DNA of 9,656 nucleotides from a virus (Duplodnaviria; Heunggongvirae; Uroviricota; Caudoviricetes), in the IMG/VR virus record IMGVR_UViG_2534681992_000031, one strand, 5' to 3'. Both the position numbers and the translations under genes were made by a program. Position 1 is the first letter of the stretch. Every line of letters begins with the position of its first letter. Positions 1,649 to 5,854 of this stretch are shown here, piece after piece. The notes under the pieces are model-generated. The model ran no database searches, was not told where the DNA came from, and saw only the letters and a program-made list of their open reading frames with translations.

Positions 1649-1858
1649 ATGCGCGAAATAAATGAAGATCGTGTAATCCGCGAAAAAGAATGCAGAGAGC
1701 TAACAGGCGTTTGCCGCACAACTCGTTACGAGATGGAAAAGCAGGGCCGCTTCCCCTCACGTATCAGTCTCGGCGGTCGTTCTGTTGGCTGGGTTAAGTC
1801 TGAGGTTATGGAATGGGTTAAAAGCAGGGATCGTATTAATGCAGGTAAGGCAGCGTAA
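1649..1858 (+). CDS. alpA: AlpA-family phage regulatory protein (small MerR-like HTH; excision/activator type), 69 aa
   Basis: Pattern RVIREKECRELTGVCRTTRYEMEKQGRFPSRISLGGRSVGWVKSEVMEWV matches AlpA/Xis-like HTH proteins (VGW...E...EW signature); AGGA at 1639-1642 six nt upstream of the ATG; position immediately after int is typical of P4-like and PICI elements. Confidence 0.8.
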   Translation: MREINEDRVIREKECRELTGVCRTTRYEMEKQGRFPSRISLGGRSVGWVKSEVMEWVKSRDRINAGKAA

Positions 1859-1993: not shown

Positions 1994-2173
1994 CTATTCC
2001 TGCTCTTTGGCCTTGCGGCGCTGGCGGCGTTTGATCTCGCCTTGCATTGACGCAATGATGAATTGTGATGTGCTTTCGCCTGATTCTTTCACTAATTCCA
2101 TCTCGTTTACTATTTCGTGTGGTACACGAGCCTTTAGAGCTTGTGATTTTGCGTTTGTTGTACCCGTTGCCAT
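1994..2173 (-). CDS. Ribbon-helix-helix (Arc/MetJ/CopG-like) DNA-binding protein, 59 aa; putative repressor
   Basis: Minus-strand ATG at 2173-2171 with AGAGGA RBS; product MATGTTNAKSQALKARVPHEIVNEMELVKESGESTSQFIIASMQGEIKRRQRRKAKEQE follows the RHH pattern (beta strand ALKARVP, helix, G-x-S/T turn, second helix), comparable to Arc. The ORF track lists a longer minus ORF (1994..2356) in this frame; the internal Met with an RBS is preferred. Confidence 0.65.
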   Translation of the reverse strand: MATGTTNAKSQALKARVPHEIVNEMELVKESGESTSQFIIASMQGEIKRRQRRKAKEQE

Positions 2174-2195: not shown

Positions 2196-2275
2196 TGGGG
2201 GACAGTATACACAGAAAAAGCACAAATAAAACTCTTGACGTGGGCCACACCTAAAGAATATAGTGGGCCACACCT
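2196..2275. promoter_or_regulatory. Divergent promoter region: rightward sigma70-like promoter with two operator-like 9-bp palindromes; candidate leftward promoter for the RHH gene
   Basis: -35 TTGACG (2235-2240), 18-bp spacer, -10 TATAGT (2259-2264). Identical 13-mers gtgggccacacct at 2240-2252 and 2263-2275, each holding the palindrome GTGG-G-CCAC, cover the spacer and the -10/+1 region. On the minus strand a TATACT -10-like hexamer lies at 2204-2209. Confidence 0.45.
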
Positions 2276-2372
2276 TGAGGTTATCAAGGTGCATAAATGC
2301 AAAGCCCCGCAAGTGTCGTTACCACTCGCAGGGCTTCTAACCACCAACGATAGCAAGATTATCGAGGCAGCT

Positions 2373-2579
2373 ATGAGAAATCATACCACACACCCGCAAG
2401 GGCGGGACTCGCACAACCTGAATAAATACATCTGGCGTTTTATCGCCCTGAGCACGGCACAACCGCGCGTGATTACCATTGAGGCCACCAGCGAACAGGA
2501 AGCACGCCAGCAATCTCCGGCTGGCTGCGTGATGGTATTCGCTGCCCGTATTCGTCAGGGGGAAACCTATGCACAATAA
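2373..2579 (+). CDS. Hypothetical protein, 68 aa; first gene of the rightward operon
   Basis: ATG at 2373 with GAGG RBS (2364-2367, 5-nt spacer); stop TAA 2577-2579 overlaps the next gene's start. No recognisable motif. Confidence 0.5.
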   Translation: MRNHTTHPQGRDSHNLNKYIWRFIALSTAQPRVITIEATSEQEARQQSPAGCVMVFAARIRQGETYAQ

Positions 2580-2793
2580 AACCACACCGGACGCAACCGC
2601 CGCCGCACTCACTACACTGATGCACGCGCTGATTGATATTTCTGTTATTGCTGACAGGGCGCATAAACACGCAGCCAGAGAATCAGAATGCATCTTCCAT
2701 TATTTAGCATTTGTGCAGCTAAAAGCCGATCAGGCACTGGATAAGGCCGGAAAAATTATCATGGCTGATGTGCAGGAGGTGCACCATGCATAA
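2569..2793 (+). CDS. Hypothetical protein, 74 aa
   Basis: ATG at 2569 preceded by a GGGGGA RBS; overlaps the previous stop by 11 nt and the next start by 8 nt, consistent with translational coupling. Predicted helical; no recognisable motif. Confidence 0.5.
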   Translation: MHNKTTPDATAAALTTLMHALIDISVIADRAHKHAARESECIFHYLAFVQLKADQALDKAGKIIMADVQEVHHA

Positions 2794-3289
2794 CCTGTCA
2801 ATTTCTGACCTTAACAGCATTCAGTTTGACGAGAAATTTACCGGGCAGTTGCTGGTCAATGTGGAGAACGGGCGCATAGTGCGTAATTATCACCTGCCGG
2901 ATGGTGCAATTGCCGGAAGCGTTGAAGCATTGCTGGAACTGGCGGAACGTGCGCGACTGATTAAGCCGTCAACGAGCCATCACGATGATGATCTGCATTT
3001 TACCGGATGTATGGTGAGTCACTACGAAAACGGCGTCGAGGTATCCTGCGAACGGCTGCGTGATGATTGCTGTTTCGGCACACTGCCGGAATTTTCCGGC
3101 GTTCCTGATGATGCGGCTGATGCGCTTTCGTCAATGCCAGAGCTTATTAGAGCGGCTTTTTTCTTACTTTCCACGAGAGAATATAAATCAACGGGGCTTG
3201 ATGTACTGAATATCGCCGCCGATTATGCGGAATATGTGGCAGAGGCGCGTTATAGAAGAAAATTTCCTGAGGATGTAAGCCATGCGTGA
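2786..3289 (+). CDS. Hypothetical protein, 167 aa
   Basis: ATG at 2786 with a perfect AGGAGG RBS (2774-2779, 6-nt spacer); preferred over the upstream ATG at 2768. Acidic protein of unknown function. Confidence 0.55.
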   Translation: MHNLSISDLNSIQFDEKFTGQLLVNVENGRIVRNYHLPDGAIAGSVEALLELAERARLIKPSTSHHDDDLHFTGCMVSHYENGVEVSCERLRDDCCFGTLPEFSGVPDDAADALSSMPELIRAAFFLLSTREYKSTGLDVLNIAADYAEYVAEARYRRKFPEDVSHA

Positions 3290-3515
3290 TATTTACCACC
3301 AAACAATAGACCGCGCATTTCTTGCACTTTCTCACAGTGAAAACATGATGGAAATATTGCGCATATGGCTTAAAACACTTGGCGACAATGAACGCGACAA
3401 ACAAAAATCAAGAATTGCCACGGCATTAATAACGCTTCTTGAGCCTGTAATAATGGAACTGCAAGAAATAGATCTATTGCACGACAGATATAAAGAACAG
3501 CACACCGGAGAATAA
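3282..3515 (+). CDS. Hypothetical protein, 77 aa
   Basis: ATG at 3282 overlaps the upstream stop (3287-3289); GAGGA upstream; stop TAA 3513-3515. Confidence 0.5.
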   Translation: MRDIYHQTIDRAFLALSHSENMMEILRIWLKTLGDNERDKQKSRIATALITLLEPVIMELQEIDLLHDRYKEQHTGE

Positions 3516-3520
3516 AAATA

Positions 3521-3895
3521 ATGAAACTTAAATATTCTGGCTTAACTGCCAGTGGCAACACTCACCCTAAATTTACGCGCGGTGATATTTACCGCGACCA
3601 GTACGGCGGCACGGTAATGATTAAGGGCGTGGAAGAACGGCGCGTAACCTACCGCCGTGAAGGTTACGAATATGATTGCGTGATGCCTGTTTATCAGTTC
3701 CGGCGTGATTTTTCTCTGGTACAGACCGCGCCGCATAACGTGCCCACCAGCAACGCCAGGGCACGGGCAAACATCCAGAAGCTGAAAACCATGATTAACG
3801 GATTCAGGGGTAAAAATGAAACTGGCACCGAACGTAAAACAGCAGTCACGCGGCATAAAACACAAAGAAACAGAAGTCATTATTTTTGCGGGTAG
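3521..3895 (+). CDS. Hypothetical protein, 124 aa; 3-prime end overlaps the primase start by 80 nt in another frame
   Basis: ATG at 3521 with GGAG 10 nt upstream; ORF runs to TAG 3893-3895. Basic C-terminal tail. The unusually long overlap lowers confidence in the exact extent. Confidence 0.4.
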   Translation: MKLKYSGLTASGNTHPKFTRGDIYRDQYGGTVMIKGVEERRVTYRREGYEYDCVMPVYQFRRDFSLVQTAPHNVPTSNARARANIQKLKTMINGFRGKNETGTERKTAVTRHKTQRNRSHYFCG

Positions 3896-5570
3896 TGATG
3901 CCTGGGCACACGCGAAACAATGGCAGGAACATGATGCGCGTATGGCCGGAGATAATGAGCCTCCTGTGTGGCTTGGGGAGCAGCAGTTATCAGAACTGGA
4001 TAAGCTGCAAATTGTGCCGGAAGGCAGAAAATCCGTGCGCATATTCAGGGCCGGATATCTTGCGCCAGTAATGATAAAGGCGATTGGCCAGAAGCTGGCG
4101 GCGGCAGGCGTACAGGATGCAAATTTTTACCCTGATGGTATGCACGGTCAGAAGGTGGAGAACTGGCGCGAATATCTGGCCCGTGAGCGCCAGAATCTTT
4201 CTGATGGTCTGGTCATTGAGCTTCCGGTAAAGCAAAAGGCGCAACTTTCGCAGATGGCGGACAGTGAGCGCGCGCAGCTGCTTGCCGATCGCTTTGATGG
4301 CGTTTGCGTACATCCTGAAAGTGAAATCGTTCACGTATGGCGTGGCGGGGTATGGTGTCCGGTCAGCACAATGGAACTGAGCCGCGAAATGGTGGCGATC
4401 TATTCAGAGCACAGGGCCACTTTCAGCAAGCGCGTAATCAATAACGCCGTGGAAGCGTTAAAAGTTATTGCCGAACCAATGGGCGAGCCGTCCGGCGATT
4501 TGCTGCCGTTCGCCAATGGTGCGCTTGACCTGAAAACGGGGGAATTTTCCCCGCACACGCCGGAGAACTGGATCACCACGCACAACGGCATTGAGTACAC
4601 GCCACCAGCACCAGGGGAGAACATCCGCGATAACGCGCCAAACTTTCATAAATGGCTTGAGCACGCAGCCCGAAAAGACCCGCGCAAGATGATGCGTATA
4701 TGTGCCGCGCTGTACATGATTATGGCGAACCGGTACGACTGGCAGATGTTTATTGAGGCCAGCGGAGACGGCGGGAGCGGTAAAAGTACATTCACACACA
4801 TAGCCAGCCTTCTGGCAGGGAAACAGAACACGGTAAGCGCTGAAATGACATCGCTTGATGATGCTGGTGGACGTGCGCAGGTTGTCGGGAGTCGTCTTAT
4901 CGTCCTGGCAGACCAGCCGAAATATACAGGCGAAGGAACGGGCATCAAGAAAATCACGGGCGGCGACCCCGTGGAAATAAACCCGAAATATGAAAAGCGT
5001 TTCACGGCGGTAATCAGGGCGGTGGTGCTGGCGACCAATAATAACCCGATGATATTCACCGAACGGGCCGGAGGTGTGGCACGTCGTCGCGTGATTTTCC
5101 GTTTCGACAATATTGTTAGTGAGGCCGAAAAAGACAGGGAACTACCGGAAAAAATTGCGGCTGAAATCCCCGTCATTATCCGCCGCTTGCTGGCGAACTT
5201 TACCGACCCTGAAAAGGCGAGGGCTTTACTACTGGAACAGCGTGACGGTGATGAAGCACTGGCAATAAAGCAACAGACGGATCCGGTTATTGAGTTTTGC
5301 CAGTTCCTGAATTTTCTGGAGGAAGCGCGCGGCCTGATGATGGGTGGCGGTGGTGATTCAGTGAAGTACACGACCAGGAACAGCCTTTACCGCGTCTATC
5401 TGGCGTTTATGGCATACGCAGGCAGGAGCAAACCGCTAAACGTGGCTGAGTTCAGCAAGGCCATGAAGCCAGCGGCGAAAGTTTACGGGCATGAATATAT
5501 TACGCGAAAAGTTAAGGGAGTAACGCAGACCAACGCAATTACAACAGACGATTGCGACGCGTTTTTATAA
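3816..5570 (+). CDS. Replication primase/helicase, P4 alpha-like / D5-type P-loop NTPase, 584 aa
   Basis: Strong RBS CAGGGG five nt before the ATG at 3816; Walker A GDGGSGKST, Walker B-like LIVLADQ, and an N-terminal primase-like region (EVIIFAGSDAWAH, RAGYLAP resembling the EGYATA primase motif). Sits just upstream of an iteron cluster. Confidence 0.85.
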   Translation: MKLAPNVKQQSRGIKHKETEVIIFAGSDAWAHAKQWQEHDARMAGDNEPPVWLGEQQLSELDKLQIVPEGRKSVRIFRAGYLAPVMIKAIGQKLAAAGVQDANFYPDGMHGQKVENWREYLARERQNLSDGLVIELPVKQKAQLSQMADSERAQLLADRFDGVCVHPESEIVHVWRGGVWCPVSTMELSREMVAIYSEHRATFSKRVINNAVEALKVIAEPMGEPSGDLLPFANGALDLKTGEFSPHTPENWITTHNGIEYTPPAPGENIRDNAPNFHKWLEHAARKDPRKMMRICAALYMIMANRYDWQMFIEASGDGGSGKSTFTHIASLLAGKQNTVSAEMTSLDDAGGRAQVVGSRLIVLADQPKYTGEGTGIKKITGGDPVEINPKYEKRFTAVIRAVVLATNNNPMIFTERAGGVARRRVIFRFDNIVSEAEKDRELPEKIAAEIPVIIRRLLANFTDPEKARALLLEQRDGDEALAIKQQTDPVIEFCQFLNFLEEARGLMMGGGGDSVKYTTRNSLYRVYLAFMAYAGRSKPLNVAEFSKAMKPAAKVYGHEYITRKVKGVTQTNAITTDDCDAFL

Positions 5571-5583
5571 TTTTTTGTAAAAG

Positions 5584-5808
5584 CCCTCTACCCCATCTAC
5601 CCGAATGAAATAAATACATATTATTCAACATGATAAGTGGGTAGAGGGCCAGGTAGAAGGCTAATAAAAGCTCTCTACCTCTTCTACCTGATTTTATCAG
5701 TTTCAGGTAGCAGGGTAGACGGCAGGTAGAGGAGCCCCAAAAGCTATCTACCCGCTGAAAGCCTCGCCATTACTGACATGATGAGCATTCGGGTAGATGG
5801 GTAGAGGG
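5584..5808. repeat. Iteron cluster, putative origin of replication
   Basis: About 12 copies of the core GGTAGA / TCTACC in both orientations, arranged as close pairs (8-12 bp apart) at 5588/5596, 5640/5652, 5674/5683, 5714/5725 and 5792/5800, with further copies at 5706 and 5747. The outermost blocks ccctctaccccatctaccc (5584-5602) and gggtagatgggtagaggg (5791-5808) are reverse complements, and pairs flank AT-rich spacers (5603-5637 and 5690-5704). Confidence 0.6.
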
Positions 5809-5854
5809 GGGGGAGGCACAACTAAAAACTTTTTAAACGAGGGGGTGAAAATAA

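Follow-up and report, generated by a model that had tools for sequence, protein, structure and literature searches.

Within a 9,656-nt stretch of Caudoviricetes DNA (IMG/VR virus record IMGVR_UViG_2534681992_000031; the window, below, means this whole stretch), five consecutive short open reading frames (ORFs), here ORF1 to ORF5, lie between a regulatory switch and a primase gene. What do these genes do for the element that carries them? A first inspection made without database searches (the sequence-only reading) had taken them for real, co-translated genes of a satellite, none with a motif that could be assigned, at a position that typically holds derepression, helper-interference or host-takeover functions. 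We found the cluster to be a version, specific to its lineage and rearranged in part, of an early operon that is widespread among phage-inducible chromosomal islands (PICIs). It is likely to work, by the mechanism proposed below, as the early and replication-proximal operon of a Gram-negative PICI satellite of the EcCICFT073 type.

The element and its five-gene cluster

The window is 98% identical at the DNA level to a ∼10-kb island in E. coli O145:H28 strain RM12581, which measures ∼10.2 kb and is inserted between yljB/cspD and clpS. Additionally, gene-by-gene synteny was found with both EcCICFT073 and Sakai Sp7 (OI-51, CP-933C), which bears out the earlier view of the element as a satellite. 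The window is an EcCICFT073-type Gram-negative PICI phage satellite of E. coli at the cspD-clpS site. The sequence features by which PICIs are recognized are present: an integrase at the left end with an adjoining AlpA gene, a primase with iterons, and the expected size (∼10–15 kb) and site, without lysis or tail genes. The integrase domains were read on an identical contig, AJVQ01000223.1 of assembly GCA_000263895.1. Helper-dependent induction, replication and high-frequency transfer have been demonstrated only for EcCICFT073 and its relatives and would apply to the window by analogy.

All five ORFs were found on the plus strand with the lengths described (68, 74, 167, 77 and 124 amino acids), and a Shine-Dalgarno-like motif precedes every start, as had been claimed. 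These motifs are GAGG at 2364–2367 for ORF1, AGGGGGA at 2557–2563 for ORF2, AGGAGG at 2772–2777 for ORF3, GAGGAT at 3269–3274 for ORF4 and a weaker, more distant GGAG at 3507–3510 for ORF5. Overlapping stop and start codons, described for the entire series, occur between ORF1 and ORF2 (11 nt), ORF2 and ORF3 (8 nt) and ORF3 and ORF4 (8 nt), while ORF4 and ORF5 are separated by a 5-nt gap. ORF5 in turn overlaps the primase gene by 80 nt.

To compare each family with its orthologues from ten other islands, we calculated the ratio of nonsynonymous to synonymous substitution (dN/dS) by the pairwise Nei-Gojobori method. Every family with enough divergence gave dN/dS below 1. The values were 0.27–0.46 for the Icd-like family of ORF1, 0.26–0.72 for the ORF2 family and 0.28–0.47 for RgdR, the family of ORF5, and deep comparisons yielded 0.19–0.27 for module B, which forms part of ORF3, and 0.14–0.20 for the ORF4 family. 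A search of 5,426 complete E. coli genomes also found the region, in full or in part, in 1,835 of them. Tight packing, ribosome-binding sites, dN/dS below 1 and matches in many genomes all support the view that these are real genes with the look of co-translation.

ORF1, RgdR and the shuffled modules

ORF1 matched NF033153, the family of Icd-like host cell division inhibitors (E 1.5e-19, 69.8 bits, cut-off 25). Phage P1 Icd itself scores 52.6 on this model, and direct comparison of ORF1 with P1 Icd gave 35% identity over 43 amino acids (E 2e-6). The C-terminal 48 residues of the P4 eta ORF (the old "cI ORF") match NF033153 as well (E 7.8e-21); this segment is Kil, a nested short eta product that "functions in cell killing" (PMC10111431). 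On its sequence, ORF1 is an Icd/Kil homologue. With NF033153 matched by ORF1, P1 Icd and P4 Kil alike, the PICI operon has at its head a gene of the kind that also comes first in the P4 left operon and in P1 immI, and as in P4 the primase is its last gene. Most likely, ORF1 halts division or growth of the host cell during satellite replication, with division inhibition suggested by analogy with P1 Icd, P4 Kil and the ECOR61 data described below. A longer Icd-like protein starting at GTG 2289, as called by NCBI and Prodigal (96–102 amino acids), was considered and set aside. ATG 2373 was kept as the start, since its ribosome-binding site marks the point where sequence conservation sets in, while the sequence upstream is variable and forms a hairpin.

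An operon of the same layout has been studied in ECOR61, where expression of the phage accessory gene orf24 (T7-group) leads to growth arrest (Silas et al., bioRxiv 10.1101/2023.04.06.535777). Transposon insertions that suppressed the arrest hit the Icd-like gene and the two that follow it, six linked genes including the primase were all needed, and removal of the Icd-like gene abolished arrest (bioRxiv 10.1101/2023.04.06.535777). In the coordinates of the ECOR61 supplement, the gene sizes of 186 and 192 nt and the overlaps are identical to those of Sakai ECs1578 and ECs1579, and for the first three genes together sizes and overlaps agree with ECs1577–ECs1579. Thus, ECOR61 very probably has this operon too, in a related PICI, and its growth arrest agrees with the suggestion that this position serves host takeover.

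At the other end of the cluster, ORF5 matched PF13973 (DUF4222; E 2.5e-24, 85 bits, cut-off 27). It is 80% identical to Sakai ECs1581 (RgdR) over 98–99 residues and 94% identical to CFT073 c1493. ORF5 has R20-G21-D22 and K35, which have been shown to be important for activity; across 62 aligned DUF4222 sequences G21 and D22 are invariant and R20 varies. Judged by this homology, ORF5 is RgdR, a variant member with an intact core.

The variation lies at the C-terminus. In RM12581 a run of six A's gives an RgdR of 99 amino acids that ends in ...GFRGKK, and its TGA overlaps the ATG of the primase. The 99-residue form with an ATGA overlap was seen in nearly all of the 120 homologues listed and in every island inspected. 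With five A's, the frame of the window continues for 25 unrelated residues into the primase gene, and the resulting protein of 124 amino acids has neither the 99-residue length, the ...GFRGKK end nor the stop overlap. The same 25-residue tail is found in a second allele, P0122 (a cluster with 8 member sequences), indicating that the slip in the A-run recurs or is a real trait of the lineage. The five-A state may be a homopolymer error of the draft assembly.

We also inspected the neighbourhood of rgdR, using E. coli genomes plus one phage for the cross-species synteny; a scan of genome contigs with the RgdR alignment under strict patterns gave 2 loci. All 12 islands inspected have a DUF4222 gene whose end forms an ATGA overlap with the start of a replication gene, while the partner replicase varies across islands and may be a primase, a RepA-family helicase or a P4-family primase. 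According to an annotation list alone, a DUF4222 gene also lies directly upstream of a DUF927 gene. Because DUF4222 always adjoins a replication gene, a role tied to replication initiation is favoured over cargo for the benefit of the host. The most likely function of RgdR is to assist in starting replication or in local transcription, and its reported effects on virulence and motility genes would be a side-effect. The one phage, vB_EcoS-733R5 (temperate, lambdoid), has an unannotated DUF4222-like ORF of 59 amino acids at 3480–3659 (plus strand), which overlaps the start of an O-like initiator gene by 11 nt; the record annotates an opposite-strand ORF at the same place.

RgdR is a small basic protein, and its model is predicted to fold as an SH3/Tudor-like barrel with a C-terminal helix, with apparent likenesses to CarD, the KOW domains of Spt5/RfaH and DUF1653, and Foldseek against viral models returned DUF1653-like phage proteins. 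Since SH3/Tudor-like barrels are common, this likeness is a lead and not an assignment. For ORF3, the AlphaFold model had a mean predicted local distance difference test (pLDDT) score of 45 and was too poor for a fold search.

Between ORF1 and RgdR, the three middle ORFs matched only PHROG families of unknown function, and searches of Pfam and NCBIfam with ORF2, ORF3 and ORF4 returned nothing above noise. For all five proteins, PADLOC gave no match at E up to 0.1 and a PDB sequence search gave nothing significant. The statement that no motif can be assigned therefore stands for ORF2, ORF3 and ORF4 but has to be dropped for ORF1 (NF033153) and ORF5 (PF13973). Confident homology of all five proteins had been named as the result that would speak against uncharacterised biology here; it was obtained for ORF1 and ORF5 only. 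ORF2, ORF3 and ORF4 are narrow enterobacterial-satellite families. ORF2 is 46% identical to its CFT073 orthologue. ORF4 is 86% identical to its orthologue in CFT073 and 26% identical to Sakai ECs1580 (E 4e-7), and its 524 database homologues are all unnamed.

ORF3 is composed of two parts. Residues 1–103 are the start of a 121-residue gene, module A, which is intact in RM12581, CRE287 and O157:H7 strain 2571. Module B, a gene of 73–77 residues, makes up the rest of ORF3 from its own residue 14 on, and module B is free-standing in CFT073, Nissle and CRE287. Alignment of the window with CRE287 showed a single 88-nt gap between two copies of GGAATTT and only 4 mismatches. Because module B is in the +1 frame of module A, a deletion of 88 nt joins the two in frame. 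As aligned, ORF3 is an in-frame fusion of two neighbouring genes.

Further comparison demonstrated that the interval from the Icd-like gene to rgdR contains one to five genes per island. The pool consists of module D, which is absent from the window, C (ORF2; three alleles), A (121 amino acids, or shorter with a single repeat), B (with either of two C-termini) and E (ORF4). Profile-profile comparison among seven modules revealed no paralogy, with all probabilities below 10%. By eye, module A looks like an internal duplication of a unit made up of FTG, a beta-hairpin and a helix. Families A and B are narrow: an exhaustive HMMER search with ORF3 recovered 36 representatives among 1.84 billion clusters. 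Two long matches in that search were rejected as an assembly read-through and an unrelated repeat protein, leaving no informative domain fusions, and diverged full-length A homologues exist (32–42% identity, 117–120 amino acids).

Fusions of these modules are found repeatedly. Public data contain full-length A+B fusions of 192–196 amino acids and A-B deletion fusions with at least four junctions (156, 158 and 167 amino acids, plus the 167 of the window). Other fusions join C+B (144–155 amino acids, on many contigs), D+C+B (221) and a short A with C+B (222). That neighbours are so often fused in frame suggests that the modules act together and that the region is fluid. From their position, and by analogy with P4 epsilon, ORF2, ORF3 and ORF4 are probably host- or helper-directed binding proteins. 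In a single case on a 1-kb metagenome contig, the N-terminal part of DUF4222 is joined to module A (P0036, 162 amino acids); this could be a recombinant or an assembly artefact.

Taken together, we propose the following course of events. In the quiescent island, the promoter at 2235–2264 is probably kept shut by the YlcI/YnfO-family protein bound to two operator repeats. Upon induction by a helper phage, AlpA would switch the genes on, as reported for EcCICFT073, in which AlpA activates the island genes and its over-expression results in toxic runaway replication (PMC6092414). A single transcript would then carry a structured leader and six tightly packed genes that appear to be translationally coupled. 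ORF1, to judge from its homologues, would arrest host division or growth during satellite replication. ORF2, the ORF3 fusion and ORF4 would most likely act by binding proteins of the host or the helper, for takeover, derepression or interference, like epsilon at the equivalent place in P4; this is the weakest step. RgdR would aid replication initiation or local transcription, and the primase/replicase would act on the iteron origin just downstream.

Switch, leader and origin

The positions of features in and around the cluster are collected in the table.

Features of the window around the five-gene cluster, in order of position
Feature	Position	Strand	Evidence or remark
Integrase, 412 aa	1–1239		Left end; Phage_integrase and Arm-DNA-bind_3
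AlpA-family regulator	1649–1858		Adjoins integrase; PF05930, E 7.9e-18
YlcI/YnfO-family gene, 59 aa, putative repressor	1994–2173	-	NF041551, E 1.8e-17
Sigma-70-like promoter (TTGACG, 18 nt, TATAGT)	2235–2264	+	Agrees with consensus at 10 of 12 positions
Two direct operator-like repeats, GTGGGCCACACCT	2240–2252, 2263–2275	+	Overlap -35 and -10/+1
Conserved leader hairpin	2303–2335	+	Followed by near-invariant stretch 2336–2354 and small hairpin 2349–2363
ORF1, Icd-like/Kil-like protein, 68 aa	2373–2579	+	NF033153, phrog_6196
ORF2, module C, 74 aa	2569–2793	+	phrog_5146, E 1.8e-42
ORF3, module A + module B chimera, 167 aa	2786–3289	+	phrog_340 (N-terminal), phrog_24341 (C-terminal)
Deletion junction GGAATTT fusing A and B	~3088–3094	+	CRE287 alignment
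ORF4, module E, 77 aa	3282–3515	+	phrog_2196, E 6e-42
ORF5, RgdR/DUF4222, 124 aa	3521–3895	+	PF13973, E 2.5e-24
Conserved RgdR part, 98 codons	3521–3814	+	Rest is frameshift-made tail
A5 run at RgdR stop/primase start	3812–3816	+	A6 in relatives (RM12581 alignment)
Primase/replicase, 584 aa, last operon gene	3816–5570	+	D5_N, DUF5906, Pox_D5; phrog_864 DNA primase

Upstream of ORF1, the TTGAC of the promoter and its spacing are conserved in related islands. The operator-like repeat region spans 2240–2284, with a possible third copy near 2190–2205. Within each island both operator copies share an island-specific core, for example GTGGCTGACACCT, which occurs twice in RM12581, and the cores differ between islands in step with the divergent YlcI/YnfO allele. 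A repressor and its operators would be expected to show such a pattern, and the co-variation suggests immunity-type specificity groups among these PICIs. YlcI/YnfO was annotated in every related island examined, with dN/dS of 0.07–0.38, and its position makes it the probable repressor of the switch. Two short inverted repeats between ylcI and the leader were judged to be chance occurrences.

The leader folds with a predicted energy of -35.3 kcal/mol (z = -4.0). Its hairpin exists in six variants among 10 islands, with three pairs changed on both sides. The near-invariant 19 nt that follow read TCTAACCACCAACGATAGC, and the small hairpin behind them touches the ribosome-binding site of ORF1. A CGATAGC...GAGGC.GC.ATG stretch is similar to the sequence that immediately precedes P4 kil. 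An Rfam search of the whole window at E up to 1 found no C4/cI/IsrK-type RNA and only spurious eukaryotic matches, none of them within 1600–2400, the interval that includes the leader. Thus, RNA-based immunity in the style of P1 and P4 is unsupported.

ORF1 is also nested in a longer frame. From an ATG at 1869, located 10 nt past the alpA stop with AGGGGAG, a strong ribosome-binding site, 5 nt before it, a frame of 236 codons runs antisense through ylcI up to the ORF1 stop and includes ORF1, an arrangement reminiscent of P4 eta/kil. The ORF1 frame is open upstream for 171–367 codons in 7 of 11 islands, and the phase is lost in 4. It is the antisense ylcI, not the long frame, that is under clear purifying selection. 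The corresponding frame of CFT073, 428 codons in length, keeps a faint Bro-N/antirepressor remnant, and no Phage_ASH signal was found in the upstream translation. NCBI annotates an 'icd-like protein' pseudogene between alpA and ylcI in CRE287 and Nissle 1917 (loci 1767–2213 and 1721–2200). By these calls, the upstream region, when translated, is similar to the N-terminal part that long Icd-like proteins have elsewhere.

Downstream of the primase, which is equal in length to that of EcCICFT073 (584 amino acids), lie an iteron-rich intergenic stretch, the SSB gene and a ClpP-protease/major-capsid fusion. The intergenic stretch contains an origin-like array (5583–5816, directly after the primase) of GGGTAGAGGG-type iterons in both orientations, flanking an AT-rich segment at 5605–5637. 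This array explains a spurious Rfam microRNA match at 5582–5663, and the iterons and AT-rich core fit the PICI origin layout of PMC6092414. In the late region, the fusion of a ClpP-like prohead protease with the major capsid protein (629 amino acids, 7228–9117, plus strand) is the sole structural gene, accompanied by two small unknown genes at 7004–7231 and 9375–9656. Portal, terminase and adaptor genes were not found in the late region of the window, which is therefore neither that of a full capsid-forming PICI nor of EcCICFT073 type. In the sister island of RM12581, module B (11595–11827) is inactivated and frameshifted by loss of 1 nt in a T-run, and the SSB gene (14705–15115) has an internal stop.

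Alternative readings and known systems

The ECOR61 data can also be read differently, with the Icd-to-primase cassette acting mainly in abortive infection or superinfection exclusion. Such a cassette would sense a protein of an incoming phage, the Icd-like effector would kill or arrest the cell, and the middle genes would be sensors or modulators. An arrest that is triggered by orf24 and needs both the Icd-like gene and all six genes is consistent with this, as is the fast shuffling of the middle region, which is typical of arms-race genes. However, the effect reconstituted in a laboratory strain was weak according to the ECOR61 authors, no PADLOC model matches any of the five proteins, and the ECOR61 middle genes are of the Sakai type and not the families of the window. 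Additionally, the operon holds its own replicase and is on in the normal cycle, and toxicity could be a by-product of unscheduled induction; AlpA over-induction of EcCICFT073 is likewise toxic. We regard abortive infection as a possible but unlikely main function. A benefit to the host of another kind has been attached to RgdR: both ECs1581 and c1493 activate LEE1 (from the enterocyte effacement locus, LEE) and type III secretion and repress motility, deletion of OI-51 lowers colonisation of sheep (Flockhart et al., PMC3378721), and RgdR is listed among the accessory virulence genes of PICIs (Fillol-Salom et al.). RgdR, and perhaps its neighbours, would then be virulence cargo without a part in the life cycle of the satellite. 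Yet all analysed E. coli PICIs encode RgdR (Fillol-Salom et al.), including those of strains without LEE. Furthermore, rgdR is always coupled to a replication gene, whatever the replicase type and also in a lambdoid phage, RgdR binds DNA without sequence specificity (Flockhart et al., PMC3378721), and PICI cargo is normally located at the ends of the element, not inside a replication operon. Cargo appears to us an improbable explanation.

Loss of function has to be considered as well, since the middle ORFs, or at least the ORF3 chimera, might be decaying remnants that do nothing in this island. ORF3 arose from an 88-nt deletion, the sister island carries the module B frameshift and the SSB internal stop, RgdR is extended by a frameshift, the modules are variably present and families A and B are tiny. 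Against this, reading frames and gene lengths persist from island to island, modules C, B and E have dN/dS values well below 1, the four or more A-B junctions as well as the common C-B and D-C-B fusions preserve the frame, and full-length A homologues persist at considerable divergence. We find such wholesale decay very doubtful. Even so, the ORF3 fusion, the RgdR extension and the two sister-island lesions indicate that the lineage may be decaying and accumulating lesions, and some of the five genes may be non-functional here. This is one of several points that weigh against the replication-proximal operon that we favour. ORF2, ORF3 and ORF4 are without a fold or family clue, with Pfam, NCBIfam, PADLOC and PDB all negative and the ORF3 model unreliable. 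The replication role of RgdR and the repressor role of YlcI are both drawn from position only. The equivalence with ECOR61 was established from gene sizes, overlaps and names, not from a sequence comparison, and the Icd family is defined by one P1 protein without a known target.

The operon may be extended into a broader scheme, which we offer as a speculation that is unlikely to be right. RgdR, with a barrel like the RNA-polymerase-binding Tudor domains of UvrD/PcrA and CarD, would be a replication-coupled factor and not virulence cargo; its location right in front of the initiator gene, in satellites as well as in some lambdoid phages, would perhaps serve to bring RNA polymerase or DNA to the origin or remodel them there, and the LEE and motility effects would be collateral. 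Combined with a first gene of nested Eta/Kil-like type, which would span the switch and have an antisense repressor gene inside it, and with freely fusing modules that read the state of host or helper, it would form a compact decision-and-takeover device common to PICIs and P4.

A version of this operon is carried by approximately one third of complete E. coli genomes, including enterohaemorrhagic E. coli O157:H7, the uropathogenic strain CFT073 and the probiotic Nissle 1917. Of the small genes in it, rgdR alone has been investigated, and solely as a virulence regulator. Placement of the cluster turns a set of unknown genes into defined questions: arrest by ORF1, the part of RgdR in replication, the partners of the modules and a role in abortive infection. 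It also carries a warning for annotation, as ORF3 and ORF5 of the window are lineage-specific products of fusion and frameshift.

Among known systems, EcCICFT073 shares with the window the order integrase, AlpA, opposite-strand YlcI/YnfO, Icd-like gene, small genes, DUF4222, 584-residue primase and SSB. The switch operators are identical, and the proteins are 98% (ORF1), 94% (ORF5), 86% (ORF4) and 78% (the B part of ORF3) identical. EcCICFT073 differs in having an additional module D (76 amino acids), another C allele, no module A, a separate B gene and an RgdR of 99 amino acids, in a late region with separate capsid and decoration genes, and in its chromosomal site, roxA-phoQ. Sakai Sp7/OI-51/CP-933C (EcCIEDL933) is similar over ECs1577–ECs1582, where an Icd-like gene comes first (50% identity), followed by an ORF4-like gene, RgdR with RGD at residues 20–22 (ECs1581), and a replicase joined by the ATGA overlap. 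In contrast to the window, ECs1578 and ECs1579 belong to other families, no YlcI gene is annotated, and Sp7, as a full capsid-forming PICI, has genes for portal, terminase and adaptor. The ECOR61 middle genes follow Sakai and not the C, A and B modules of the window.

Similarity extends to phages P1 and P4. In P1 immI (c4, icd, ant1/2), Icd is the first cistron and overlaps the next gene, and downstream expression can depend on its translation. The window differs in the absence of a C4 antisense RNA and an Ant antirepressor, and the likeness to Icd is limited to the 35% identity over 43 residues. Homologues of P4 epsilon (PF25738) and Cnr (DUF5375) were not found in the window. When the five proteins were compared with epsilon, orf151 and Cnr by BLASTP, a lone weak match of RgdR to orf151 (E 0.026) was not accepted as homology. 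The window also differs from P4 in its switch, which appears to be based on a protein repressor, with no cI/C4-type immunity RNA detected. The P4 left operon (eta/kil, epsilon, orf151, cnr, alpha) nevertheless has the same plan, with an Icd-like domain first, a P4-family primase last and, between them, small genes that are regulatory or directed at host and helper. As in the window, an AlpA homologue lies upstream, and the sequence before kil resembles that before ORF1. The position that the sequence-only reading had singled out as typical of derepression, interference and takeover thus corresponds to the one where P4 keeps its host-killing, helper-derepression and copy-control genes.

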